The notes beneath the pieces were generated by a model. That model made no database searches. It was not told the DNA's origin and saw only the letters and a program-made list of their open reading frames with translations. The position numbers and the translations under genes are program-made. Below, piece after piece: positions 1,012 to 20,119 of a DNA stretch of 64,000 nucleotides. Each line of letters opens with the position of its first letter. Within the stretch, counting starts at the first letter, position 1. The stretch is from Candidatus Doudnabacteria bacterium RIFCSPHIGHO2_01_FULL_46_14 (GTDB taxonomy: Bacteria; Patescibacteriota; Doudnabacteria; UBA920; 2-01-FULL-46-14): assembly GCA_001779925.1 (NCBI GenBank), contig MFEK01000014.1, positions 86,983 through 150,982 on the forward strand. Direction: 5' to 3'.

Positions 1012-1091
1012 CCCCGTTAGAAATTTGATCAAGAAAAATTAGACAAATAATTATGATAATACAAATTAACCTACAAGGATTTCTAACGGGG
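1012..1091. mobile_element. 80-bp MITE-like element with perfect 13-bp TIRs CCCCGTTAGAAAT / ATTTCTAACGGGG around a 54-bp AT-rich core, flanked by 4-bp direct repeat TGAG (1008-1011 and 1092-1095)
   Basis: TIRs and TSD read directly from the sequence. Removing the element restores a GAATGAGCGCT junction with pilM TGA overlapping pilN ATG. Confidence 0.65.
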
Positions 1092-5052: not shown

Positions 5053-6845
5053 GGCGACATCAGGACTTCTATCGTTTGATAACCATTGACATTCAGACCG
5101 GGCAAGATCTGGGTTTGGTAACCTGCTAGCGTCACGTCCAGGTCATAATTGTTTCCGGCGGTCAGCCCGGGAAATATGACCTGTCCCGGAGTAAAACAGC
5201 CTGATACGTAGTTAATCTGAACACTGGTCATGACCGGGGTTTTTTTCTCGTCGGTCGTGGAAAGCAAGGCTCGGTATCGCACGTAACGGTTGCTGTCATG
5301 CGCGTTGGAGATGCTGGTGCCCGGCACTGTGTAGAAAGTGCCGGATGTCCCATCCGGGCCTTTGTAATCCCATGTGGTATTGTCATTGTTGGAAGCGATT
5401 TGGAATTTTAGGGTGGTGGCCGGATTCTGCGAGGTCGGCATCCAGGTAATAGTGCTGTAATTGCTCGATGCTGTTCCCGTATCAAATGTCGAGGGTTGGA
5501 GCTCGCCGTTTGAAACGTAATCGCCAGTGATTTTGAGAAGCTCTACTCCGCTTGGTTTGACCTCGATCTGGCCGTCGTCAATGAAATATTTAGTAACGTC
5601 AGTGAAATTGGCCTGGCCAGGACCGCCTGTCCAGTCATTTTGGACCCAAACGCTGCCGCCGGTCGTGCCGTAGTAATCCTGGGGCTGGCTGCCGCCTTTT
5701 CGGAGGTGCACGGCCGCGTCCTGCAGTGTTGCCTGGGTTGCCGCGTCCTTGACTATCACAAGCAAACTATCCGAAGTTTCCGGGCCGAGGTTTAGGGTGA
5801 AGCTCTGGGTGGTGCCAGGCAGGAGGTTAATGTTTTGTATGGGTGAAGTCCCGTAGATCATGAGATTTTGTCCGGTCAACAAAGCGGGGAGGTAATTGTC
5901 CCATTCCATATTCTGCAGGGCGATGAGTCCGGCGATCGAAGAAAAGTTTTGATCAAATTTTAGGACATTGGGGTTGGTCCCGATTAGTTTTGATCCTTTG
6001 ACATTGACCCCGACATTGCTCAGGGGTTGGCAGGTTTGGTTCAGGGTGGATATATTGAGAGTACTGACCAGATCTATGGCAAAACTGACCTGGGTGACCT
6101 GGCCATTGATGATTGTCGCGTCGGGTTTGACTGGATTGGGATTGCCCGCGGTAATCGGGTAGGTCTGGTCTGAGGAGTACCCGCTTTTGCTAACTACAAT
6201 ATGGTAGCCGTTGACGCTTATCGGCAAGCCGACCTCAATCCAATTGCCGCTCGCATCAGTTTGACGGTTGAGGATTATATTCGGGTTGACCAGATTATTG
6301 GTAATGCTGACGCTTGCGCCTGCAACTGGCTGGCCGCTGGCATTAAAAACTTTTATGTAAAGTGCGCCGGCGTTGGAAAGTCCCTCCAGACCTTTCGGCG
6401 AGACAGTGGTAACAAAAGTATTGACCTGTCCCGTTACCGTGTTTTGGACATTCATTTTGACCTGTTTATAGTCATTCGGGGCCGGGTCTGTGCCTAGAAG
6501 GATCGTGCCGTCCGCACTGTCATCGACATAAGTAACTTCATAATAAATATTGTAATTGATGCCTTCAGCGCTGAGTATTTTCGGGTTTGCTTGGTCATTG
6601 AGATTGCCCGCAGGGTTGCCCGAGACTGTGCCGATGGTGCTGTAGGGTAGGTTTCGTATGGTTTCCAGTTCATTGGCGGTAAGGTTGGTAATCACGGTCT
6701 GCTGGCGGTTAACCTTGGTGACGCGATTGAGCGCGTTGAAAACACCAATTACTCCGACGAGCAGGATTGCGGCGATGCCGATGCCAACCACCGCTTCAAT
6801 CAAGGTGAATCCTTGGAGGATTTTTATTTTATTTTGTGTTCGCAT
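5049..6845 (-). CDS. Large (598 aa) prepilin-type protein, putative pilus tip or minor pilin
   Basis: QGFTLIEAVVGIGIAAILLVG N-terminus; first gene of the coupled operon 6845 to 2590. Confidence 0.65.
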   Translation of the reverse strand: MRTQNKIKILQGFTLIEAVVGIGIAAILLVGVIGVFNALNRVTKVNRQQTVITNLTANELETIRNLPYSTIGTVSGNPAGNLNDQANPKILSAEGINYNIYYEVTYVDDSADGTILLGTDPAPNDYKQVKMNVQNTVTGQVNTFVTTVSPKGLEGLSNAGALYIKVFNASGQPVAGASVSITNNLVNPNIILNRQTDASGNWIEVGLPISVNGYHIVVSKSGYSSDQTYPITAGNPNPVKPDATIINGQVTQVSFAIDLVSTLNISTLNQTCQPLSNVGVNVKGSKLIGTNPNVLKFDQNFSSIAGLIALQNMEWDNYLPALLTGQNLMIYGTSPIQNINLLPGTTQSFTLNLGPETSDSLLVIVKDAATQATLQDAAVHLRKGGSQPQDYYGTTGGSVWVQNDWTGGPGQANFTDVTKYFIDDGQIEVKPSGVELLKITGDYVSNGELQPSTFDTGTASSNYSTITWMPTSQNPATTLKFQIASNNDNTTWDYKGPDGTSGTFYTVPGTSISNAHDSNRYVRYRALLSTTDEKKTPVMTSVQINYVSGCFTPGQVIFPGLTAGNNYDLDVTLAGYQTQILPGLNVNGYQTIEVLMSP

Positions 6846-6997
6846 TTTTTGTTTCTACTGGATTTTTTCTTGAAAATATTATACCATAAAGCGAAGTATA
6901 TCACAAGGATTCGCGGCTCTCCGACCTGTGTCGGAGTCGGGTAAGGGTCGGAGAACGGCTCTAATCGGACAACAGATACCCGCCCGACTCGCCTGAC

Positions 6998-7072
6998 GGC
7001 CCTGTAGCTCAAAGGATAGAGCACTAGTCTTCGGAACTAGTGATGGGGGTTCAATTCCCTCCAGGGTCACCA
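6998..7072 (+). tRNA. tRNA-Arg (anticodon TCG)
   Basis: Manual cloverleaf: acceptor GGCCCTG/CAGGGTC, D arm GCTC..GAGC, anticodon stem CTAGT/ACTAG with loop CTTCGGA, T loop TTCAATT, CCA encoded. Confidence 0.8.
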
Positions 7073-7278
7073 TACGAGTCAGGCGGGCGGGTTTCAAAAC
7101 ATTGGGCTTCCGTTCTAAGTGGATAATCCTTTGGCTGAAAATTCCTGTTGGGCACATACGAATTTAATAACTGGGGCCCCCGAAAAAGCGCAGTTTTTTT
7201 GGGGAGAGCGGGACTCGAGCTTAGATTGCAGAGAACCGCTTTAACGATTCGCGAAAATCGTAGCCCTGAGTCACGCGA

Positions 7279-7354: not shown

Positions 7355-7396
7355 CAACACAACTCAAAGGTTTTTGCGAAGGCGGGCATCATAATC

Positions 7397-7603
7397 ATGA
7401 CAAACAAAGAAAAAATTTATGGAGTCACAGAGCTTTCAAAATTTTTCGCGGTCAGCGAAAAAACGATTTGGGATTGGTGCAGGAAAGGGAGACTTCCGGG
7501 ATTCAAAATAGGAAAAGAGTGGAAAGTGAGAATATCTGACCTAAATCGATTAATAATCGGAAAAGTTAATGCCAAAACAGAAAAGGGCAAGACTCTATTT
7601 TAA
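7397..7603 (+). CDS. Small excisionase/MerR-type helix-turn-helix DNA-binding protein
   Basis: VTELSKFFAVSEKTIWDWCRKGRLPGFKIGKEWKVRISDL matches the Xis-family HTH pattern. Lies 43 nt after tRNA-Lys. Confidence 0.5.
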   Translation: MTNKEKIYGVTELSKFFAVSEKTIWDWCRKGRLPGFKIGKEWKVRISDLNRLIIGKVNAKTEKGKTLF

Positions 7604-7605
7604 GT

Positions 7606-8670
7606 ATGATCAATTTTTTCTACGGCGAAGACACATTCACTCTGAGCCAGGAAATTACAAATTTAAAAGCAAGGTTTAAATTTGTGGAAACGCTGTCCAT
7701 CAACGGCGAATCAGATGTTCAGCTCAAAAATAAACTTCAGGACATCCTGCAAAGCCAAGGACTGTTTGTACAAAAAAAACTAGTAATTTTGAACAATTTT
7801 TTAACTGATGTAAAAGCCTATCCGCAGACTGAGGAGTATTTGCTTAAGGCTTTGAATAACTCGAACAGTGAGACTACGGTAGTGATTGCGCAGGAAGAAA
7901 AATTCGATCGCAGATTGAAATTTTTTAAAGCCTTGCAGAAAATAGCCCAGAATCGCGAATTCACTATCCCGGCGGGAAAAGATCTGGAAATTTGGATTAA
8001 GAGTTATTTGGGTCACCGGGGATTTGAAATCGAAAACAGTGGGCTTGTGGAATTAATTGCAAGATTGAGTGATGATGGTATTGACCCCGTTAGAAATAGC
8101 CCGTCCCAATGGGCATCTGGGCGTACTAGCACGGGCGAGATTGCTAACGGGACGAGTTTGTGGCAGGTCAGCTCGGAGTTGGAGAAATTGATGCTATTTC
8201 GATCCCCCCCCTCCCTCAGTCCCTCCCCACCAGGGGGAGGGAAGATTGCATTCGCTGACGTTCGCGATCTTGTGATGCCTAATATTTCCCAAAATGTGTT
8301 CCAGCTCACCAATCTATTCGCTGAAGGAAGAGGCCGTGAAGCTGTATCGCTTTTGGAAAAAATGATGAGCGCACCGCAGGCCTCGGATCTGAAATCTCAA
8401 ACCATTCAGATCATCGGGGGTCTGGCCTCCCAGATCCGAAGCTTGCTTTTGGTCAAGGATTTGGAAAGAGAGACACCTTCAAAGATTGCCGAGATTTTGA
8501 GTTGGAAAGAGGGACGAGTTTGGATAAACTCAAAGCTGGCCAAAAAATTCACAAAGGAAAAATTGCTTGGATTGATGCGCGACCTACGTGCGCTCGATTT
8601 ACGCTTGAAAACTTCGGAAGAACCGCCTAAACTGCTATTATCGCTATTCTTACAGAAAGCCAAAGTTTAA
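7606..8670 (+). CDS. holA: DNA polymerase III delta subunit-like protein carrying an in-frame repeat insertion
   Basis: N-terminal MINFFYGEDTF delta-subunit motif. A low-complexity insert (PVRNSPSQWASGRT..., PPSLSPSPPGGG) is encoded by the repeat elements at 8085-8245. Confidence 0.55.
   Translation: MINFFYGEDTFTLSQEITNLKARFKFVETLSINGESDVQLKNKLQDILQSQGLFVQKKLVILNNFLTDVKAYPQTEEYLLKALNNSNSETTVVIAQEEKFDRRLKFFKALQKIAQNREFTIPAGKDLEIWIKSYLGHRGFEIENSGLVELIARLSDDGIDPVRNSPSQWASGRTSTGEIANGTSLWQVSSELEKLMLFRSPPSLSPSPPGGGKIAFADVRDLVMPNISQNVFQLTNLFAEGRGREAVSLLEKMMSAPQASDLKSQTIQIIGGLASQIRSLLLVKDLERETPSKIAEILSWKEGRVWINSKLAKKFTKEKLLGLMRDLRALDLRLKTSEEPPKLLLSLFLQKAKV
8085..8151. mobile_element. Second copy of the CCCCGTTAGAAAT-TIR element family, inserted in frame inside holA
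   Basis: Shares the 20-mer TTAGAAATAGCCCGTCCCAA and further homology with the copy at 24369-24429. Imperfect TIR CCCCGTTAGAAAT / ATTGCTAACGGG. Confidence 0.5.
8201..8245. repeat. GC-rich hairpin repeat (TCCCTCCCC ACCA GGGGGAGGGA) of the CCCCTCC..GGAGGGG family, in frame in holA
   Basis: Family members at 10167-10199, 10576-10598 and 54241-54300. Confidence 0.45.
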
Positions 8671-8746
8671 CACGTTAGAAATAACAAAGAGTTAACATCA
8701 AGCGCGTAGAAACCAAACATATCTAGCGGTATCTAGAAAGGAATTT

Positions 8747-9529
8747 ATGACATTATTATTATGGATTCTTGCCGGCTGCATAGTTTCCGGAGTGTTATCC
8801 CTGATCGGCGGCGCAGTATTGCTCGTCAAGGCAGATTTGATTCGCAAATTTTCCACGCATTTGGTATCATTTGCGGTTGGAGCTCTTTTAAGCACTGCAT
8901 TTTTAGATCTTCTTCCTGAAGCAATAGAACATGGACGGGAGGCAGGAGTTGGAATCGATGCGCTTCTTGTTGCAGTTATGATCGGGATTGTTGGGTTTTT
9001 TATTTTAGAAAGTTTGATATTGAAATTCCATCCGCACCACCATGAGGACGAGGACGAGTTTCATCATCATGCGACGCCAAAGCTGCTGCTTATCGGGGAC
9101 ACTATGCACAATTTTATTGACGGCGTGGTTATAGCTGGAGCCTTTCTAACCAACGTGCCTTTGGGAATCGTAACGGCCATTGCGGTTGCCGCTCATGAAT
9201 TGCCTCAGGAAATTGGGGATTTTTCAGTGATGCTTTATCACGGCTGGGCAAAACCTAAAGTTCTGTGGGCCAATGTCATATCCTCTCTCTCGAATATTGC
9301 CGGAGCGCTAATTGCGTTTTTTGCCGCAAGTTTTCTTGAACCAAAATTGCCGCATTTACTAGCCCTCACCACTGGGATTTTTATCTACATCGCGGCCGCA
9401 GATCTCATTCCGGAAATTTCCATGTCCCATCGCCGTGATAAAACCAGTCATGTTATAATTTTGCTTTTGTTGGGAATTTTTGCAGTTTGGATTTTAAAAT
9501 TTTATCTGGAAGGAACCGTTCATGGCTAA
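8747..9529 (+). CDS. zupT: ZIP family metal (zinc) transporter
   Basis: His-rich loop HPHHHEDEDEFHHH, conserved HELPQEIGDF motif, multiple TM helices. Confidence 0.75.
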   Translation: MTLLLWILAGCIVSGVLSLIGGAVLLVKADLIRKFSTHLVSFAVGALLSTAFLDLLPEAIEHGREAGVGIDALLVAVMIGIVGFFILESLILKFHPHHHEDEDEFHHHATPKLLLIGDTMHNFIDGVVIAGAFLTNVPLGIVTAIAVAAHELPQEIGDFSVMLYHGWAKPKVLWANVISSLSNIAGALIAFFAASFLEPKLPHLLALTTGIFIYIAAADLIPEISMSHRRDKTSHVIILLLLGIFAVWILKFYLEGTVHG

Positions 9530-10157
9530 GTACATCGACATAAGCTTGAGCCTCGACAATACTACGTTTCCCTGGCCGGGCGACACGAGATTTGTTCGCT
9601 TGGAGAAAAAAGGATCCGGAATAGTTTCCCAGCTAATCATGTCAACGCATACCGGTACTCACATTGACGCACCCAAGCATTTTTTGTTTGATAAATCCGG
9701 CGTTGATCAAATTCAGCTAGCGAAATTGATCGGACCGGCGCGAGTTATGGCGATAAATTCTGAAAAATTAATCACAGTAAAAGATATTCTGTCGGCCCAA
9801 GGCCGATCCGCCTCGGGCGGAAAAATCCAAAAAGCGGAACGGATCTTGTTTAAAACCAGAAATTCCAAACTTTATAAAAAAGGCAGATTCACGGCTGATT
9901 ATGTTTCGTTGTCCCTTGAGGGTGCCGAGTATCTGGCAAAAAAGAAAATCAGTCTCGTTGGCATAGATTATCTGGGCATTGAAGCCAAAAGCGCGCCCGG
10001 GCATCCGGTGCACAAGACACTGCTTGCAGCAGGCATTGTGAATCTGGAGGGACTAGATTTATCCAAGGTCAAACCAGGCAATTACAATCTCGCGGCATTG
10101 CCGCTGAAAATAAAAGCTGGAGATGGTTCACCGTGCAGGGCTATTTTGTGGCGTTAG
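9522..10157 (+). CDS. Cyclase-family protein (kynurenine formamidase-like)
   Basis: HTGTHIDAPKHF cyclase signature. Confidence 0.65.
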   Translation: MAKYIDISLSLDNTTFPWPGDTRFVRLEKKGSGIVSQLIMSTHTGTHIDAPKHFLFDKSGVDQIQLAKLIGPARVMAINSEKLITVKDILSAQGRSASGGKIQKAERILFKTRNSKLYKKGRFTADYVSLSLEGAEYLAKKKISLVGIDYLGIEAKSAPGHPVHKTLLAAGIVNLEGLDLSKVKPGNYNLAALPLKIKAGDGSPCRAILWR

Positions 10158-10552
10158 GAATCTTTTCCCCTCCTTAACAAGGAGGGGTTAGGGGAGGTCT
10201 TGATTGCAGTCTCTATCTCCTCAAGTACTGCCTCAAGATTTTTATAAATTTCCTGATTGGTGAATCGAAGAAACTTGATGCCAAAAGATTGAATATAAGC
10301 CTGCCTATCCTTGTCCAGTCTTGCCGAATTGTCGTCAAAATGTGAATCACCATCAATTTCAATGGCCAATTTCAGGAGCGGGCAATAAAAATCAACAATA
10401 TATTTGCCTACACTGTATTGTCTGCGAAATTTTACGCCGAGTACACTTTTGTTTTTAAGATGCCCCCACAGGATCCGTTCTGCCGGGGGCATATCTGTTC
10501 TTAATTTTTGTCTTTTGATTTTTTCTGATGTCTTATTGAAGGTTTTTGTCAT
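10154..10552 (-). CDS. DUF559 (Vsr-like PD-(D/E)xK) endonuclease-domain protein
   Basis: ERILWGHLKN...KFRRQYSVGKYIVDFYCP...LAIEIDGDSHF...FLRFTNQEI. The C-terminal 14 aa are encoded by the flanking hairpin repeat. Confidence 0.65.
   Translation of the reverse strand: MTKTFNKTSEKIKRQKLRTDMPPAERILWGHLKNKSVLGVKFRRQYSVGKYIVDFYCPLLKLAIEIDGDSHFDDNSARLDKDRQAYIQSFGIKFLRFTNQEIYKNLEAVLEEIETAIKTSPNPSLLRRGKDS
10167..10199. repeat. Hairpin CCCCTCCTTAACAAGGAGGGG followed by TTAGGGGAGGTC; left inverted-repeat boundary of the DUF559 unit
   Basis: AGGGGAGGTC (10190-10199) is the exact reverse complement of GACCTCCCCT (10576-10585). Confidence 0.55.
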
Positions 10553-10575
10553 TTTTTACCCCACCTGACCTCCCC

Positions 10576-10598
10576 TTGTAAAGGGGAGGAACAAAACA
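10576..10598. repeat. Hairpin CCTCCCCTTGTAAAGGGGAGG; right inverted-repeat boundary of the DUF559 unit
   Basis: Mirror of the left hairpin; same loop type TTAACAA / TTGTAAA. Confidence 0.55.
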
Positions 10599-11528
10599 TC
10601 ATTTTTTATATTTGACCTCATGTCCGCCAAATTGCTTTCGAAGCAGGGCTACGATTTTGTTGGAAAAAATTTCCTGATTCTCCGGCTTTTCGGATTCTTG
10701 CCTGACGCGAAAGGCATCTTCCATTACCGGAACATTTACGCCCAGGCGTTTTGCTTCGTCAACAGTCCATTTGCCTTCGCCTGTATGGTGCACATAGCCG
10801 ACAACGTTATCAAGATCCTCAGTGTCAAAAATATTTTTAGCGAGGTCCACGAGCCAAGAGGATACCACTGAGCCTTTGCTCCAGATGTGCGCCACCTGCG
10901 AGAAATCAAGGTTTTTAAATTCAGACGCTTTCAGAACGCCGAAGCCTTCGGCGATCGCCTCCATCATGCCGTACTCGATGGCATTGTGCACCATTTTGAC
11001 GAAATGGCCCGCGCCGTTCGGACCAACCAGACCGAAATTTTCGCCATTGCCGGCCGCCAGCGCTTTGAATACTGGCTCTACCCGCGGCCAGATTTCTTTG
11101 GGACCACCAACCATGATGGAAAAGCCGTTTCTCTCTCCCCACACGCCGCCTGATGTGCCACTGTCGAAAAAATGAATACCTTGCTCTGCGAGTTTTTTGG
11201 CCCGGATTTGCGAGTCACGGTAAAAAGAATTGCCACCGTCTATCACAATATCACCTTTCGACAAGCTCAGGGCCTTCGGCCCAAAAAGGAATTCATCGAC
11301 GAGGTCACCAGCAGGGAGCATTAACCAGACGATTCGTGGTGAGTCTATTTCTGTAATTAGTTGCTCTGGAGTTTCCGCGACCTGGCCCCCAAACTTCGCA
11401 AATTCCTCCCGCGGTCCCGGACTGCGGTTCCATGCAATGATGTTAAATTTATTGGTATGCAGTCTGCGGGCAATCTGCGCGCCCATTCTACCAAGCCCCA
11501 TTATGCCTATTGTTACCTGATGTGCCAT
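10599..11528 (-). CDS. gnd: 6-phosphogluconate dehydrogenase, decarboxylating (short YqeC-type)
   Basis: N-terminal IGIMGLGRMGAQIARRL NAD-binding fold; typical length; overlaps zwf stop. Confidence 0.8.
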   Translation of the reverse strand: MAHQVTIGIMGLGRMGAQIARRLHTNKFNIIAWNRSPGPREEFAKFGGQVAETPEQLITEIDSPRIVWLMLPAGDLVDEFLFGPKALSLSKGDIVIDGGNSFYRDSQIRAKKLAEQGIHFFDSGTSGGVWGERNGFSIMVGGPKEIWPRVEPVFKALAAGNGENFGLVGPNGAGHFVKMVHNAIEYGMMEAIAEGFGVLKASEFKNLDFSQVAHIWSKGSVVSSWLVDLAKNIFDTEDLDNVVGYVHHTGEGKWTVDEAKRLGVNVPVMEDAFRVRQESEKPENQEIFSNKIVALLRKQFGGHEVKYKK

Positions 11529-12961
11529 TGCCTTTGATCCTTTTTGATTAATTTATCAGATCCTTCCGGACCCCAGCTTCCTGCGGGATAAACGGAAACC
11601 CTGGTTTTTTTCAAATATTTTTCAATCTCGTCAATGTATTTCCAGGAATACTCGATTTCATCAGAGCGGGCGAAGAGACGCTGATCTCCTTCGATGAAAT
11701 CGAGGAGCAAGCGCTCGTAAGCCTCCGGAAATTCACCTTGAAAAGCCGAATGATAACCAAGCTCCATGGTCACAGGGTGGAGGCGGATCCCAAATCCCGG
11801 GAATTTGGCCGCGATATCCAAAAACAGTCCTTCGTTCGGATGGATTTCAAAATTCAGCACATTGGGGATGTCCGGTTGTCCGCCAAACAGGTCAGGGAGA
11901 GGACGTTTGAAATGAATCGAAATTTCCGTTATCTTTGATTTTAGTTTTTTACCGGCGCGCAGATAAAAAGGCACGCCCTGCCATCGCGGGTTATCAACAT
12001 GGAGCTTCAGAGCGGCAAAGGTTTCCACTGTGGATTTTGGATGAATGTTCGGTTCCGCTCGGTATTTTGCGTACTGTCCGGCGGCTAGAGAATTTTTCAT
12101 TTCTTTAGCCTTTGGCATTCTGATTTGTTTTATCACTTTTGCCCGCTCATCGCGGATGGCGGTTGCCGACAGATCATGAGGGGCTTCCATGGCAATGTGA
12201 GCGACAAGCTGCATCATGTGGTTTTGCACTACGTCTCGGATTGCCCCTGTTTGTTCGTAGAACGCCCCGCGGTTTTCAATGCCCCTTTCCTCCAGAGAAG
12301 AGATTTGTATATGGTCAATGTATTTACGGTTCCAAATCGGTTCAAAAATACTGTTTGCAAACCGGACAGTGAGAATATTCTGTACGGTTTCTTTGCCGAG
12401 GTAATGGTCGATGCGGTAGATTTGGCTTTCAGAAAAATATTTTTCCAAAGTCTCGTCAAGTTTCTTTGCAGATTTGAGATCAGACCCGAACGGCTTCTCA
12501 ATGACCACTCTGGTTTGGCGCTTGTGGATCCGACAGCCGACGAGCAGGCCTGATTTGTCCAAAGCATGGGAAATGGTGTGGTAATGTGAGGGCAGGGTGG
12601 CGAAATAGAAGAGACGATTGGCGCAACTATGATTTTTGCTTTCTAGTTTTACCAGTAATTTAGCCAGTTTTTTAAAATCATTTTCGTTCGTGAAATTGCC
12701 CGACATATAATAAATTTTTTTCGCAAATTTATTCCATTCTTTGGATATGCCCGGCGGTTCTATTTTTTTACGAAACTGTTCGTGCGAAAACTCGCTTCTG
12801 GCAAAACCGACTATGCTAATCGACTTTGGCAGCAATTTTCGTTTATATAGGCGGTTGAGAGCAGGGATAAGCCTGTGGCCGGCCAGATCACCGGTCGCGC
12901 CAAAAATAACTAGGATGGTCGGGTCAAGATGTTCTTTTTGCATAACTTGATTATAAATCAA
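11513..12961 (-). CDS. zwf: Glucose-6-phosphate 1-dehydrogenase
   Basis: ILVIFGATGDLAGHRLIPAL and RIDHYLGKE signatures. Confidence 0.9.
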   Translation of the reverse strand: MIYNQVMQKEHLDPTILVIFGATGDLAGHRLIPALNRLYKRKLLPKSISIVGFARSEFSHEQFRKKIEPPGISKEWNKFAKKIYYMSGNFTNENDFKKLAKLLVKLESKNHSCANRLFYFATLPSHYHTISHALDKSGLLVGCRIHKRQTRVVIEKPFGSDLKSAKKLDETLEKYFSESQIYRIDHYLGKETVQNILTVRFANSIFEPIWNRKYIDHIQISSLEERGIENRGAFYEQTGAIRDVVQNHMMQLVAHIAMEAPHDLSATAIRDERAKVIKQIRMPKAKEMKNSLAAGQYAKYRAEPNIHPKSTVETFAALKLHVDNPRWQGVPFYLRAGKKLKSKITEISIHFKRPLPDLFGGQPDIPNVLNFEIHPNEGLFLDIAAKFPGFGIRLHPVTMELGYHSAFQGEFPEAYERLLLDFIEGDQRLFARSDEIEYSWKYIDEIEKYLKKTRVSVYPAGSWGPEGSDKLIKKDQRQWHIR

Positions 12962-13219: not shown

Positions 13220-13383
13220 AATAATTTCACCTCCCCTCGGTTATGAATTATTAACGCTCAAACATTATGCTTTGCGCGCTTGATCTAACCGATAGACTAA
13301 TGAACAATTATTTACACAATAATTATCTTATTTTTGGAACAGCCCGGTTTTTGTTTCATGCCTCAGTTTCTATGCTTGTATAG

Positions 13384-13412
13384 TTGAAATTTTTCGTAAA
13401 AAATGGTAAAAT
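13384..13412 (+). promoter_or_regulatory. Sigma70-type promoter TTGAAA-17-TAAAAT upstream of the tRNA-Arg(TCT) locus
   Basis: -35 at 13384-13389, -10 at 13407-13412, 17-nt spacer. Confidence 0.5.
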
Positions 13413-13452
13413 CACAATAATTCGAATAAACGAGTCCCCGTAGTTCAACTTG

Positions 13453-13464
13453 CCCCGTTAGGCA
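13453..13464. repeat. Left arm CCCCGTTAGGCA of a perfect 12-bp inverted repeat; partner TGCCTAACGGGG at 13541-13552
   Basis: Shares the CCCCGTTAG core with the MITE TIRs at 1012, 8085 and 24369. Confidence 0.6.
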
Positions 13465-13466
13465 TT

Positions 13467-13538
13467 CTCCCCGTAGTTCAATGGATAGAACGGGAGCCTT
13501 CTAAGCTCTTGATGTAGGTTCGATTCCTACCGGGGGGA
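13467..13538 (+). tRNA. tRNA-Arg (anticodon TCT), inner intact copy, no CCA encoded
   Basis: Acceptor CTCCCCG/CGGGGGG, D arm GTTC..GAAC, anticodon stem GGAGC/GCTCT with loop CTTCTAA, T arm GTAGGTTCGATTCCTAC. Confidence 0.75.
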
Positions 13539-13659
13539 TGTGCCTAACGGGGTGAAGATAGAACACTGGTCTTCTAAGCCGGATATGTAGGTTTGATTCC
13601 TACCGGGGATACCAACGAGGCAGTAATTTGTAATTAGTACTTAGCCTATCCAAAATACT

Positions 13660-14181
13660 ATGGAAAAAAGCTTTCTACATTTTTTTCTCGGGTCTGATCC
13701 GGAACGGCACCGAAAAATCCTCAAAAGCCTGAAAGCGAAAGCTGACGCCAAACGGACCGTGACTGAGCGTATCGCTGACTGGATGACCAGTCATTTTGGC
13801 ACTATGTTCTTTTTGACTCTGAACGTCATCATCTTTTTCCTCTGGCTTTTGATAAACACTGGGAAAATTTCAGGCATACCTATTTTTGATCCTTTCCCTT
13901 TTAATCTTTTGACCACAGTCGTTTCCCTAGAAGCAATCATGCTCGCCATATTTGTGCTTATTTCGCAGAACCGGGCAGCTAGGGTTGATGATGTTCGCGA
14001 AGAAACTCATTTGCAGATAGACCTGATCACTGAAAAAGAAGTAACTAAGGTTTTAAAACTCCTCACAACAATTGCCGAGAAAAACGGCATTGACCTTTCG
14101 CAGGATCCTGAGTTACAGAAAATGCTGAAACCCGTGAGCGCCGACGATCTCGAAAAAATGCTCGAAAAAGAGATCTCTTGA
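13660..14181 (+). CDS. DUF1003 family membrane protein
   Basis: Two TM helices plus the conserved LISQNRAARVDDVREETHLQIDL region. Confidence 0.6.
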   Translation: MEKSFLHFFLGSDPERHRKILKSLKAKADAKRTVTERIADWMTSHFGTMFFLTLNVIIFFLWLLINTGKISGIPIFDPFPFNLLTTVVSLEAIMLAIFVLISQNRAARVDDVREETHLQIDLITEKEVTKVLKLLTTIAEKNGIDLSQDPELQKMLKPVSADDLEKMLEKEIS

Positions 14182-14359: not shown

Positions 14360-14434
14360 GGTGCCCGTAGTTCAATGGTAGAACGCCGCTCTGTGGCAGC
14401 GGTCACGAGGGTCCGATTCCCTTCGGGCACCCCA
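14360..14434 (+). tRNA. tRNA-His (anticodon GTG) with G-1 and encoded CCA
   Basis: G-1 then acceptor GTGCCCG/CGGGCAC, anticodon loop CTGTGGC, T arm GAGGGTCCGATTCCCTT, discriminator C. Confidence 0.85.
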
Positions 14435-16572: not shown

Positions 16573-16600
16573 TGGCAGCGGTCACGAGGGTCCGATTCCC
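16573..16600 (+). repeat. 28-bp exact copy of the tRNA-His anticodon-to-T-arm segment (TGGCAGCGGTCACGAGGGTCCGATTCCC); direct repeat of 14391-14418
   Basis: Identical 28-mer read in both places; bounds a 2.1-kb islet. Confidence 0.55.
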
Positions 16601-16786
16601 CTTGACCCCCTGACTTTCAAACGTGCGCTATATGGCGCAGCATTAAATTGATAGGTTGTAAGCAGTATCTAGAACTTTTATAATTCCCTTATATGGTGCC
16701 GCCCGTCTCGCCGTCGGCATCGCCGAGGTTTGGACGAAAGCTAGTGTTTTTTGTTAAGATGAGGTTGTCATCCGAAATTTCTTGAA

Positions 16787-18785: not shown

Positions 18786-20119
18786 TTGAGCGCTTCGATA
18801 TCAGCTTGGTATTGATTGGCCATTTTGACGACATTGTCGCCGTAAAATCTATATTTGGTATTAGTGCCACCCGAGAAATAACGCATGGCCGCGGCCCATT
18901 CGCCTCCCACAGTGCCCGCGCCTCCCGCGTGCAGTTTGATCGCTGAAGCGATAAACGCGTCCCGGATATCCCAGGGGTTCGCGGTTTTGCCGGTGATGGC
19001 CGCAACTTTATCTTTATAGCCCATCCATGTTGAAGGAATAAATTGCGCCGGCCCCATAGCCCCGCCCCAGCCGATTTGCTTGCCGTTCCGACGCATGGGA
19101 CAGGAAACAGGGGTAGTGTCCGGGTCCATTCCCAGATCTGCTGTGATTAGTTTAAATGGCTCCTGGTCGCGCTCGGGTTTCATGACCACTCGCCAGCTTT
19201 TTTCCGGCGGATCGCCTGGGCGGTTGCAGGTGCCCACGTTTTTTCCCAGGTTTGATTCCTGCGTTAGAATGGCGAGTAAAAAAGCTGCGCGCACGCCAGT
19301 CATGCCTGAGGCATATTTGGCGATTTCCACGGCTTCGCCAAAGGTGATTTGCGTGTTGACGCCGAGCAGCTGATAGAGGCGATTTCTAATTTCCCCGGCT
19401 TTCTTTTTACTGTCGCCCAGCACTGCCTGATATTCTGACTCGAGCCCGCGGGTTTGCTCGAGGATGGTTTTTTGTTCGGTTTCCGTGCCCACTAGCTGCT
19501 CTTTTTGCAGGCTTTGGATAGACAAAAGATTATTTGCCTCGTCATGCTGCTCGCCAAGCGCGGTTTTTGCAGCCGTCAATTTTTCGTTTGTCTGTTTGGC
19601 TGCGTCAAGCAACGTGCCCAAGCCTTCGGAAACCTGCGAATAATATTCCAGTTCGGAGAGCACGTCCGAAAGATTGTCGTGGGAGAGCACGATGTGCAGA
19701 AGGGGAGTGTTGTCCTGTTCGTACGCAAGCGCAATCAACTCTGCCAGTTGCTTTTTCAGTTCAGACATTTTTGCGGCGTTGCGCTCGATAGAATCTTCTG
19801 TGACAGCAATGCGGCTGCCAATCTCGCTGATGCGTACAGTAGTCGCGCGAATCTGTAGATTCAAAGCGGACTGCTGTTTTTTGAGGGCTTTGATTTTATT
19901 CTGCAGACTGTCTTTTTGTCCTTTGATTTCCGTGAGCTCGCGCTCGTACGCGCGGATCTGGTTTTCTATGTCCAGCAGCTGCCGCTCCAGATCCGTTTTT
20001 TCATCCTGGCCTGCTTGTCCGCCTTGGGTGGACTGTCCGCTCGCCGGGACAATACTGCTTCCTAGAATCACAGCAAGTAAAATCAGCCTGGCTATGTATT
20101 TTTTAGCTCGAGAATTCAT
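18779..20119 (-). CDS. Secreted lytic transglycosylase (SLT domain) with long N-terminal coiled coil (EnvC-like)
   Basis: Signal peptide, about 250 aa of coiled coil, C-terminal LTQESN..GPAQFIPSTW SLT motifs. Confidence 0.6.
   Translation of the reverse strand: MNSRAKKYIARLILLAVILGSSIVPASGQSTQGGQAGQDEKTDLERQLLDIENQIRAYERELTEIKGQKDSLQNKIKALKKQQSALNLQIRATTVRISEIGSRIAVTEDSIERNAAKMSELKKQLAELIALAYEQDNTPLLHIVLSHDNLSDVLSELEYYSQVSEGLGTLLDAAKQTNEKLTAAKTALGEQHDEANNLLSIQSLQKEQLVGTETEQKTILEQTRGLESEYQAVLGDSKKKAGEIRNRLYQLLGVNTQITFGEAVEIAKYASGMTGVRAAFLLAILTQESNLGKNVGTCNRPGDPPEKSWRVVMKPERDQEPFKLITADLGMDPDTTPVSCPMRRNGKQIGWGGAMGPAQFIPSTWMGYKDKVAAITGKTANPWDIRDAFIASAIKLHAGGAGTVGGEWAAAMRYFSGGTNTKYRFYGDNVVKMANQYQADIEALNQ

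Follow-up and report, generated by a model that had tools for sequence, protein, structure and literature searches.

A tRNA-Arg(TCT) gene of an uncultured groundwater bacterium, Candidatus Doudnabacteria, is split in its D loop by an insert that is bounded by inverted repeats and contains a second, divergent and intact tRNA-Arg(TCT) gene. The nested locus occupies positions 13434-13614 (181 nt) of the window, i.e. the whole 64,000-nt stretch of DNA analysed here. The explanation we favour, with a probability of roughly 0.6, is that a promoter-less and probably mobile tRNA cassette replaced the resident tRNA-Arg(TCT) and that the outer halves are its relic.

Architecture and history of the nested locus

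The nesting proposed in an earlier note on this DNA is real and all of its coordinates hold, including those of the perfect 12-bp inverted repeat bounding the 108-nt insert (13453-13464 / 13541-13552). The nested 181 nt are the same in seven independent metagenome assemblies and are thus no assembly artefact; the contigs stem from ERZ4903055, ERZ27254767 and related runs. Genes for G6PD and a DUF1003 protein adjoin the locus. The cassette is laid out as a 12-bp arm, 2 nt, the tRNA, 2 nt and the other 12-bp arm, with a further 4 nt on either side:

13384..13412, + strand: promoter-like site (TTGAAA, 17 nt, TAAAAT, with TG ahead of the second hexamer)
13434..13448, + strand: 5' fragment of the outer tRNA-Arg(TCT), GTCCCCGTAGTTCAA (acceptor 5' strand, U8 A9, D-stem 5' strand, A14 A15)
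13449-13556: insert, 108 nt
13449..13452, + strand: left junction CTTG, missing from the intact orthologue
13453..13464, + strand: left arm of the inverted repeat, CCCCGTTAGGCA, a perfect 12 bp with the right arm
13467..13538, + strand: inner tRNA-Arg(TCT), canonical (G18 G19, A20, C56, A73), without encoded CCA
13541..13552, + strand: right arm of the inverted repeat, TGCCTAACGGGG
13553..13556, + strand: right junction TGAA, missing from the intact orthologue and no duplicate of the left junction
13557..13614, + strand: 3' fragment of the outer tRNA-Arg(TCT), from D-loop GATA through ACCA, GATAGAAC...CGGGGATACCA (ACCA at 13611-13614)

In four syntenic relatives the outer tRNA is intact at the same locus, with an identical 75-nt sequence, so the uninterrupted copy that the earlier note suggested looking for does exist (L157/L256, L257 and L254). 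Contig L157 is syntenic with window positions 7391-12937 (6PGD 87% and G6PD 73% identity) and has GTCCCCGTAGTTCAATGGATAGAAC...ACCA unbroken at the equivalent place; in L254 and L257 (G6PD 74% and 71%, respectively) the 75 nt are identical to this intact orthologue. These comparisons use synteny via G6PD; synteny via the downstream DUF1003 gene was tried and abandoned, as relatives at 77-67% identity carry other genes upstream. The uninterrupted syntenic orthologues show that the 108 nt are a derived insertion. In L157, L254 and L257 the first 15 positions of the orthologue match the outer 5' fragment (13434-13448) exactly, and relative to these three contigs the insert took the place of the D-loop bases TG.

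Close relatives have three different tRNA-Arg(TCT) alleles at the orthologous locus, including a clean replacement by another allele in L253 (G6PD 85%), which indicates that allele replacement does happen here. The alleles differ mostly in the anticodon stem. The whole nested allele might have come from a different lineage of Patescibacteria, through homologous recombination on the conserved tRNA halves and their flanks, with the odd junctions reflecting donor history. Absence of a target duplication and the near-identity of tRNA sequences between species are consistent with such an import. However, except for two C-to-T changes, the outer halves agree with the allele native to this clade, down to G1.U72 and the anticodon stem, and the 5' homology arm inside the tRNA would have been just 15 nt. 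Import would also merely shift the origin of the nesting to another genome, and we regard it as unlikely though plausible.

The only promoter-like site found by scanning 13250-13750 is the one at 13384-13412, 22 nt upstream of the outer 5' end, and the block can be aligned with its counterparts in L253 and L257. Judging from the sequence, the cassette appears to be promoter-less and the single conserved promoter of the resident gene was apparently taken over.

The inner tRNA was called as tRNA-Arg(TCT) at 13466-13539 by ARAGORN, and 13467-13538 matched Rfam RF00005 over its full length (model positions 1-71) with 66.6 bits, the gathering score being 29. Positions G18 G19 and T54 T55 C56 are conserved for tRNA tertiary structure, and A20 and C35 are arginine identity elements. 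The inner gene (D loop AATGGATA, T loop TTCGATT, anticodon TCT) has the conserved tertiary positions as well as both identity elements. It lacks the encoded CCA that is present in the outer copy and in the window's three other tRNAs. Neither this nor the altered outer T loop described below figures in the earlier note. Inner and ancestral outer tRNA differ at 12 of 72 positions, with mostly compensatory changes in the stems and compensated differences in the anticodon stem. In an alignment of two orthologues with the inner and the joined outer tRNA, we counted 21 of 21 cloverleaf pairs kept, ten of which had changed on both sides, in agreement with the compensatory stem differences noted earlier. 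This degree of divergence, together with the geometry of the insertion, rules out a simple decayed tandem duplicate, which the earlier note had named as one outcome that would overturn its reading. The nearest relatives of the inner tRNA in our sample are stand-alone genes elsewhere. It looks foreign while being canonical, and is presumably the working gene.

Apparent decay of the outer copy and predicted fold of the precursor

As the earlier note had stated, the outer halves fold as a tRNA-Arg(TCT) when joined: ARAGORN made this call for most of the ways of joining them that were tried, and the four stems of the joined cloverleaf are paired (21/21 pairs kept). Conserved positions have nevertheless been lost relative to the intact orthologues. 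The outer copy is missing G18/G19 and has the changes C31U and C56U, the latter giving a T loop of TTTGATT (U56) in place of TTCGATT, whereas the tRNAs of the relatives have undergone none of these changes. In a metagenome scan C56 was present in all 121 comparison matches to tRNA-Arg(TCT), although the search pattern permitted T. Without G18/G19 and with U56, the lock between D loop and T loop that holds the L shape is gone. The outer 3' piece with its adjoining repeat arm scored 24.7 bits, under the Rfam tRNA gathering score of 29, while the uninterrupted orthologue scored 71.2 bits; with this score and with G18/G19 and C56 gone, the outer copy is not a canonical contiguous gene. A strain variant (L259) has an additional A26G and an altered final base of the right arm. 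These patterns suggest that the outer copy is under relaxed constraint, and it is probably a non-functional relic. The damage is light (two substitutions in 73 nt, with every stem still paired), which leaves room for continued constraint.

Folding of the primary transcript, a check proposed in the earlier note, gave two nested cloverleaves as the minimum-energy structure of 13425-13625 (−82.5 kcal/mol, z = −5.1), and none of 200 shuffled sequences was as stable. Both tRNAs might be functional if the repeat stem kept the outer halves together after excision of the inner tRNA, yielding either a two-piece tRNA or a ligated tRNA with an extra D-loop arm, a bacterial counterpart of archaeal split and intron-containing tRNAs. 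The fully paired outer stems, the encoded ACCA, the mere two substitutions relative to orthologues and the nested fold itself are all in keeping with this idea, as are the conserved CUUG/UGAA flanks, which could be an RNA motif, and one nested locus elsewhere (L163) whose outer copy is fully canonical. Against it stand the missing G18/G19 and the U56 at a position that is C in 121/121 comparison genes. Moreover, the fold has no bulge-helix-bulge motif, its borders flanking a continuous helix of at least 12 bp, and there is no match to an intron family. Outer copies at L158, L187 and L169 are heavily decayed while their inner tRNAs are intact, and a working tRNA with the same anticodon makes an outer copy redundant. 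We therefore consider function of both copies quite unlikely. Joining of the halves by an unusual RNA processing step, which the earlier note had offered as an alternative, finds no support on the same grounds (no bulge-helix-bulge, lost G18/G19 and C56, outer copies elsewhere plainly decaying), and from the sequences any RNA-level role for the outer halves seems unlikely. A group I or group II self-splicing intron was also considered and rejected: tRNA is the sole Rfam match in 13300-13750, even at E values of up to 10, and the insert has 108 nt versus more than about 200 nt for such introns.

According to the explanation we favour, replacement of the resident tRNA by a cassette, a cassette with a complete foreign tRNA-Arg(TCT) would have entered the D-loop-coding part of the single resident tRNA-Arg(TCT) gene, displacing TG. 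The resident promoter would then drive one precursor, in which stacking of both repeat arms on the inner acceptor stem may give a helix about 24 bp long that carries the inner cloverleaf at its end. Ordinary tRNA end-processing enzymes (RNase P and a 3' nuclease) could free the inner tRNA, probably following cleavage in the long helix; it would receive its CCA post-transcriptionally and become the cell's tRNA-Arg(UCU), while the outer pieces would be left as a disabled relic bound to decay. The cassette itself would belong to, or derive from, small inverted-repeat elements with CCCCG...CGGGG ends that are moved in trans.

Cassette ends and a MITE-like family

The 9-mer CCCCGTTAG occurs five times in the window against 0.32 occurrences expected, each time at the end of an inverted repeat. 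The earlier note had equated the repeat core with the ends of a MITE, and a real MITE-like family with these ends does exist. The CCCCGTTAGAAAT family, which we defined from our own searches, comprises 122 copies at no fewer than 119 loci in public genomes, with mutually unrelated interiors. Two copies lie in the window:

1012..1091, no strand assigned: canonical MITE-like copy with ends CCCCGTTAGAAAT / ATTTCTAACGGGG and a 4-bp duplication TGAG
8085..8151, no strand assigned: degenerate MITE-like copy, an in-frame 19-residue insertion in HolA

Both arms of the cassette share 9/9 bases with the family termini (CCCCGTTAG at the start, CTAACGGGG at the end), and the left arm shares 11 of 13. At 100 nt from end to end, the cassette is within the family's length range of about 74-104 nt, the interior being free. 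Repeat positions 10-12 of the cassette are GCA, compared with AAA or ACA in the family; GCA was found in 0/122 copies although the search pattern permitted it. Family members have identical 4-bp flanks in 80 of 121 copies, mostly at TNNA sites, whereas the cassette is flanked by CTTG and TGAA, with no target duplication and two native bases (TG) lost. Treating the junctions as duplications of 2 to 4 bp was tried in every possible way, and none agrees with the intact orthologue. The missing duplication and the lost TG count against ordinary transposition by the enzyme of the MITE-like family.

The earlier note's suggestion that this family targets tRNA D loops found no support. A single one of the 122 copies is in a tRNA gene, at L066, where it lies inside tRNA-Pro, outside the D loop, and recreates the 5' strand of that gene. 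The lack of a target duplication at the cassette, as well as the unrelated repeats of other nested cassettes, also argue against it. The companion idea of a tRNA-derived family had as its sole basis a loose likeness of the repeats to tRNA ends. Another family member, at L200, encloses a tRNA.

The same likeness might instead point to a local rearrangement without any mobile element, in which slippage or template switching at tRNA palindromes duplicated the resident tRNA and the repeat consists of copies of tRNA ends. The arms do loosely resemble such ends (CCCCGTTAG vs CCCCGTAG, TGCCTAACGGGG vs TTCCTACCGGGG), and the two tRNAs nested at L213 do not differ in their 3' 50 nt. At the present locus, however, the 12/72 differences from the ancestral outer tRNA, the compensated anticodon stem and the missing CCA of the inner gene speak against a copy of the resident, the 9-nt end is identical to that of an abundant element family of the same genome, and nested cases elsewhere have repeats unrelated to their own tRNA ends. 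Local rearrangement is therefore very unlikely.

Identical family ends are found in Patescibacteria, including Doudnabacteria MAGs, and in Planctomycetota, Desulfobacterota, Omnitrophota, Nitrospirota and Gammaproteobacteria, which hints at a very widespread mobilising enzyme for the MITE-like family. The cassette itself is probably mobile. There was no second copy of the exact cassette among the 122 family matches in genomes or in viral contigs. End pairs 0.4-4 kb apart enclosed no gene that might mark an autonomous partner, the candidates being separate short copies that had been paired. No transposase, integrase or common protein was seen near ten nested loci, at which all-against-all BLASTP of ORFs up to 5 kb on each side gave housekeeping synteny alone. 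Carriage of the family by phages was considered and rejected, with only one copy among 2.9 million viral contigs.

Recurrence and relation to known systems

Repeat-flanked tRNAs within tRNA remnants recur on at least eight other metagenome contigs (L163, L213, L237, L200, L187, L158, L169 and L162). Inner and outer anticodons agree at every locus with a readable outer copy: this holds for L163, L213, L237 and L187 and probably also for L169, the outer anticodon being ambiguous in L200 and unreadable in L158 and L162. Outer copies range from intact (L163) to heavily decayed with further hairpins (L158, L187). The repeats of other nested cassettes, e.g. CCTGCCCGCC...GGCAGGCGGG, are unrelated to the CCCCGTTAG ends. 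Insertions would survive only if the tRNA they bring shares its anticodon with the transcribed tRNA gene that they enter, because the damage would then be complemented and a promoter gained; selection of this kind is the probable cause of the matching anticodons.

Nested-type cases make up several percent of our metagenomic sample of tRNA-Arg(TCT) genes, and flanking duplexes of −25 kcal/mol or stronger were present in 5/325 tRNAs, versus 0.17% in mismatched-flank controls. The motif CTTG recurs ahead of a CCC... hairpin at L200, L061 and L162. In RNA, pairs of the types G.U, U.G and U-A would form between CUUG and UGAA, a possible pairing that fits an RNA-level signal more naturally than DNA ends.

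More generally, and with somewhat less than even confidence, we suggest that Patescibacteria may carry a hitherto undescribed class of tRNA replacement cassettes, non-autonomous and promoter-less, in which a whole tRNA gene flanked by short inverted repeats enters the loop-coding part of a gene with the same anticodon, takes its promoter and leaves a relic. Such cassettes would cause continuous turnover of tRNA alleles, of which the three alleles at one locus would already be a visible sign, and evasion of nucleases that attack tRNAs could be what drives such turnover. In a bolder variant, the conserved helix flanked by CUUG/UGAA would be an RNA-level signal and the outer halves would still give a working two-piece tRNA. 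Should the cassettes prove mobile, horizontal exchange would be open to essential single-copy tRNA genes while their old copies are retired, a selfish element could become indispensable, and tiny genomes could renew their tRNA alleles. For annotation, the locus carries a warning: tRNA finders list the inner gene alone and miss relic halves and tRNAs behind such inserts.

We found no earlier account of this arrangement in the literature searched for the repeat sequence, for nested or disrupted bacterial tRNA genes and for MITEs together with tRNA in Patescibacteria. The cassette resembles MITEs and the Rickettsia palindromic elements, which Ogata et al. reportedly described in 2000 as small palindromic insertions into genes that are tolerated. 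Like these, it is short and non-autonomous, with terminal inverted repeats and a variable interior, and the related family gives 4-bp duplications and has entered HolA in frame and an RNA gene (L066). Unlike these, it bears a complete tRNA with the anticodon of its target, made no duplication and removed two bases. To our knowledge, no MITE has been described in which the target is replaced by the cargo.

Disrupted tRNA genes are also known in archaea, where the bulge-helix-bulge motif at exon-intron borders consists of two 3-nt bulges around a 4-bp helix. Among them are the split tRNAs of Nanoarchaeum equitans and genes with non-canonical bulge-helix-bulge introns (PMC4033280). As in the archaeal genes, the halves are parted at a loop and a G+C-rich, 12-bp complementary pair could hold them together; the present case differs in that it is bacterial, has no bulge-helix-bulge, has lost conserved tertiary positions and comes with an intact copy, without splicing. 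The tRNA introns of Patescibacteria likewise break tRNA genes in a loop and occur in the same phylum, but they are self-splicing ribozymes of hundreds of bases in the anticodon loop and restore the host tRNA, whereas the insert described here (108 nt) matches no intron, interrupts the D loop and holds a tRNA. The word 'nested' is absent from the paper on these introns. A review describes bacterial tRNA genes as uniform and lists self-splicing introns as the sole structural exception (PMC4033280); a tRNA gene interrupted in its D loop by an insert that brings its own replacement would be an exception to this rule.

Integrative elements that target tRNA genes share with the cassette that they disrupt such a gene yet supply its function and leave the displaced native part as a relic. 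The cassette departs from them in placing a whole tRNA between 5' and 3' relics, in having 108 nt and no recombinase, and in its D-loop insertion. Integrase events leave one complete tRNA and a partial 3' copy that flank kilobases of cargo. The locus might be an integrase-type island scar or an integron-like cassette, as GTTAGGC and GCCTAAC within the repeat recall attC core sites, and a tRNA-His 3' copy 2.1 kb downstream of the tRNA-His gene in the window indicates that integration at tRNA genes occurs in this genome. However, a 5' fragment, a full tRNA and a 3' fragment within 181 nt have the wrong geometry. An attC site folds with the inverse core RYYYAAC on its 5' side and the core GTTRRRY on its 3' side, and it adjoins intI. 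The order GTTAGGC ... GCCTAAC is inverted relative to this, the related family's ends GTTAGAA do not match GTTRRRY, and neither an integrase nor intI was seen near the locus, all of which makes an integrase or integron origin extremely unlikely. The tRNA-His remnant, at 16573-16605, is a classic example of tRNA-targeting integration. It accounts for one of the further T-loop-like words in the window; the other, at 19249, lies in unrelated sequence.

The nested locus and its counterparts in relatives

The nested tRNA-Arg(TCT) arrangement that the earlier note had read from this DNA was borne out: two outer halves, 108 nt apart, enclose an intact inner tRNA, and the 12-bp inverted repeat of the insert contains no mismatch.

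Features of the nested locus (window positions)
13434-13448: left half of the outer tRNA-Arg(TCT), GTCCCCGTAGTTCAA
13449-13556: 108-nt insert, in order CTTG, CCCCGTTAGGCA, TT, the 72-nt tRNA, TG, TGCCTAACGGGG, TGAA
13467-13538: intact inner tRNA-Arg(TCT)
13557-13614: right half of the outer tRNA, GATAGAAC...CGGGGATACCA

From the unmodified sequence, ARAGORN and Rfam (66.6 bits) call the inner tRNA-Arg(TCT) only. When the insert is deleted, ARAGORN calls a second tRNA-Arg(TCT) at most of the join points tried, as the earlier note had expected of the joined halves. Folding, which it had also proposed, predicts two nested cloverleaves on one long helix for the 201-nt region (−82.5 kcal/mol, z = −5.1), in which the sequences on either side of the inner tRNA (5' leader, 3' trailer) are paired up to its acceptor stem in a helix of ~24 bp with one bulged U. 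The 181-nt locus is identical in seven independent metagenome assemblies, which rules out an assembly artefact.

Flanking the locus are G6PD and DUF1003, in divergent orientation. The G6PD is 100% identical to that of an NCBI Candidatus Doudnabacteria (Patescibacteria) MAG, which assigns the organism to this group. Synteny via DUF1003 homologues did not reach the orthologous tRNA locus. A metagenome scan for a common anticodon-loop and T-arm pattern found a relative (L157) that is collinear with window positions 7391-12937 (HolA, ZIP, cyclase, 6PGD at 87% identity and G6PD at 73% identity) and carries an unbroken outer tRNA (GTCCCCGTAGTTCAATGGATAGAACACTGGCCTTCTAAGCCGGATATGTAGGTTCGATTCCTACCGGGGATACCA; 71.2 bits) in the corresponding position upstream of G6PD; L256 is from the same population. 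Two further relatives obtained through G6PD homologue look-ups, L254 (G6PD 74%) and L257 (71%), have a 75-nt uninterrupted outer tRNA identical in sequence to that of L157. Because the outer tRNA is thus unbroken in syntenic relatives, the outer type is ancestral, and the window lineage has gained 108 nt that replaced the D-loop bases TG. The closest relative, L253 (G6PD 85%), shares its promoter block with the window and carries at 592-663 a third, different, uninterrupted tRNA-Arg(TCT) allele without a surrounding relic. Aligned, the alleles of the locus keep 21/21 cloverleaf pairs, 10 of them with changes on both sides. One orthologous locus in a narrow clade therefore holds three tRNA-Arg(TCT) alleles, and the allele has changed more than once. 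It is unlikely that the window lineage acquired its nested allele whole, by recombination.

Proposed replacement of a resident tRNA gene

All conserved features (G18 G19, A20, T54 T55 C56 and A73) are present in the inner tRNA. It has no encoded CCA, and neither do some tRNA genes of relatives (in L253, and the tRNA-Arg(TCG) of L157), so that CCA is presumably added enzymatically in this clade. Compared with its orthologues, the outer copy has the G18/G19 segment replaced and C56 and C31 each changed to U; C56 occurs in 121/121 scan matches, under a pattern that permitted T. A strain variant (L259), the contig end of which is unreliable, adds A26G to the outer changes, and the final base of its right arm is mismatched. 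In three other lineages the 75 nt are unchanged, while their proteins are ~70-74% identical to the G6PD of the window; this invariance, set beside two changes at structural positions in the window, suggests relaxed constraint on the outer copy. Its differences are exactly those expected of a gene freed from constraint, and they argue for such a history. The earlier note had allowed for joining of the halves at the RNA level, and the joined halves can be called as a tRNA; with these changes in the outer copy, we regard a still functional two-piece or extra-arm tRNA as improbable.

Between 13250 and 13750, a scan found a single promoter-like site (TTGAAA and TAAAAT spaced by 17 nt, extended by a TG), located 22 nt before the 5' end of the outer tRNA and conserved in both L253 and L257, and no terminator was found between the tRNA locus and DUF1003. 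Both observations suggest that the inner tRNA is transcribed from the predicted promoter of the resident gene as part of one precursor, which may be cut in the ~24-bp helix before RNase P and 3' trimming.

The best-supported explanation is gene replacement by insertion of a promoter-less, repeat-bounded tRNA cassette. Such a cassette would enter the loop-coding part of a resident gene with the same anticodon, its tRNA would use the resident promoter, and the outer halves would remain as a relic; across loci, outer copies form a series from intact to decayed. A tRNA gene would thus be disrupted by a mobile element with compensation built in. In genomes with single-copy tRNAs, the only survivors would be cassettes that complement the broken gene and land behind its promoter, so selection can account for the matching anticodons; a targeting mechanism could also lie behind them.

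Among the closest known likenesses are palindromic MITE-type elements tolerated within genes, integrative elements that repair the tRNA gene they interrupt, archaeal tRNAs that are split or carry introns, and the recently catalogued group I introns in Patescibacteria tRNAs (PMC13011429), but in none of the four does an insertion bring a complete replacement tRNA into a gene of the same kind. The sole structural exceptions in bacteria given by a review of tRNA gene diversity are group I/II introns (PMC4033280). A full-text literature search found no description of such nesting, an absence that is not proof since most subscription papers lay outside its reach. There is a fair chance that these loci represent mobile tRNA cassettes of a class not recognised so far.

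Nested tRNA genes at other loci

Excise-and-rescan and flank-duplex ranking over 341 and about 325 ARAGORN-predicted tRNAs of the collected loci revealed similar arrangements in other metagenome contigs.

Further loci with nested tRNA genes
L163, L213: tRNA-Arg(TCT) in tRNA-Arg(TCT), exactly between A21 and G22; arms CCTGCCCGCCAT.GCC... / ...GGCGATGGCAGGCGGG
L158: arms and position as in L163 and L213; outer copy full of further hairpins
L237: tRNA-Arg(CCT) in the D loop of tRNA-Arg(CCT); perfect arms CCCCGTATTGTT / AACAATACGGGG
L187: tRNA-Pro(TGG) in a decayed tRNA-Pro, at its anticodon region; arms CCCCGTACCAAAT
L169: outer copy interrupted twice, by an empty hairpin (D loop) and by a tRNA cassette (anticodon loop)
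L162: insertion follows AA in the D loop; junction AAGCTTGCCC
L200: tRNA-Pro in the anticodon loop of another tRNA, itself between CCCGTTAGAAAT-type ends; further tRNA-Pro fragment upstream

The anticodons of outer and inner copies agree in L163, L213, L237 and L187 and probably in L169; the outer anticodon is ambiguous in L200 and unreadable in L158 and L162. L200 (6900-7700, minus strand) is a multi-level nest, in which a tRNA-Pro 5' fragment is followed by a CCCGTTAGAAAT-type end, a split tRNA and the matching right ends; what splits this second tRNA, at the anticodon loop, is a cassette with CCCCTCACCTTTT arms and an intact tRNA-Pro(TGG). The CTTG...TGAA flanks of the window recur at two levels in L200 and around two empty hairpins (L061 and L162).

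Flank duplexes of −19 kcal/mol or stronger were found in 6/112 metagenomic tRNA-Arg(TCT) genes. Remnants resembling tRNAs surround or adjoin five of these (L158, L162, L163, L169 and L182); the other one (L178) stands alone, with part of a tRNA repeated in inverted orientation downstream. At −25 kcal/mol or stronger, they occur in 5/325 tRNAs compared to 0.17% in controls. The inner and outer tRNAs of L163 show compensated pair differences at 5-68, 49-65 and 50-64, which indicates that the inner tRNA evolved as a working tRNA elsewhere. For the window, in-place duplication of the resident tRNA is very unlikely. In L163, L158 and L213 the arms are more conserved than the tRNAs between them. Near the nested loci no protein family recurred, and we give almost no credence to an integrase or integron scar.

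Repeat ends and other tRNA genes of the window

The motif CCCCGTTAG occurs five times in the window (0.32 expected), each time at a repeat end, and two MITE-like copies were recognised.

MITE-like copies in the window
1012-1091: copy with 13-bp ends CCCCGTTAGAAAT and duplication TGAG
8085-8151: degenerate copy; 19-residue in-frame insertion (PVRNSPSQWASGRTSTGEIA) in HolA relative to L157

The first copy was inserted into a former ATGA stop/start overlap (site 1007-1095): the upstream ORF (84-1010) retains its TGA, and the downstream ORF (1091-1663) now begins with a GTG, formed by the element's last G and the duplicated TG, in frame with the old ATG at 1007. HolA, the host of the degenerate copy, is DNA polymerase III delta (7606-8670); just downstream of that copy, a second C/G-rich palindromic stretch (~8200-8240) encodes SPPSLSPSPPGG.

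A scan of one genome per species found the family at at least 119 loci, with ends CCCCGTTAGAAAT / ATTTCTAACGGGG that are identical across many phyla (L009-L127): Patescibacteria (including Doudnabacteria), Planctomycetota, Desulfobacterota and other 'Deltaproteobacteria', Omnitrophota, Nitrospirae, Gammaproteobacteria, KSB1 and others. Among the matches listed, the 122 copies measure 74-104 nt, their interiors are unrelated, and 80/121 have identical 4-nt flanks, mainly TNNA; copies are nested within one another in L106 and L090. The elements form a real, non-autonomous family with a very wide distribution. Searches found no autonomous partner, a single copy in viral contigs and no description in the literature.

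The earlier note had equated the core of the cassette repeat with the MITE end. The terminal 9 nt are indeed common to both (11/13 on the left arm), but the cassette departs from the family at positions 10-11 and has no target duplication: its left flank is CTTG, its right flank TGAA, and two native bases have been lost. Membership of the family is thus plausible, with one defining feature, the duplication, absent. The observation in the earlier note stands, and so does part of its interpretation, but its suggestion that the family targets tRNA D loops is not supported: only 1/122 listed copies lies in a tRNA gene, at tRNA positions 6-9. In this case (L066, an Omnitrophota MAG, 5089-5263), the copy lies within tRNA-Pro(TGG) with duplication CGTG, and the element's last bases CGGGG together with the duplication rebuild the 5' acceptor strand perfectly; the original 5' end (CTGGGCGTG), now displaced, is still present upstream.

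An interrupted 15-bp inverted repeat (6975-7095; ACCCGCCC..GCCTGAC / GTCAGGC GGGCGGGT), with a flank duplex of −31 kcal/mol, surrounds the tRNA-Arg(TCG) gene of the window (6998-7072) and resembles the arms of L163-type cassettes. The gene is very unlike the syntenic L157 tRNA-Arg(TCG) in sequence, so it may be another replaced tRNA.

An intact tRNA-His (14361-14434) has a 28-nt direct copy of its 3' part, spanning the anticodon loop through the T arm, 2.1 kb downstream (16573-16605). The ORFs between the two encode a DUF5678 protein, a 157-aa protein, an ice-binding-like surface protein and an HTH regulator. In its layout this is a classic mark of integration at the anticodon loop, but no integrase is present. 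A conserved block of ~110 nt (~7163-7278; GGGGCCCCCGAAAAAG..TTTTTTGGGGAGAGCGGGA..AGATTGCAGAGAACCGCTTTA..AAAATCGTAGC..CACGCGAG), which has no match in Rfam, immediately precedes tRNA-Lys in the window and tRNA-Arg(TCT) in L254 (upstream of 1915, minus strand) and may be a transferable leader or promoter for tRNA genes. Between cyclase and 6PGD, the window has an ORF for a DUF559-like (Vsr-type) endonuclease (10154-10552), where syntenic L157 has a different ORF.
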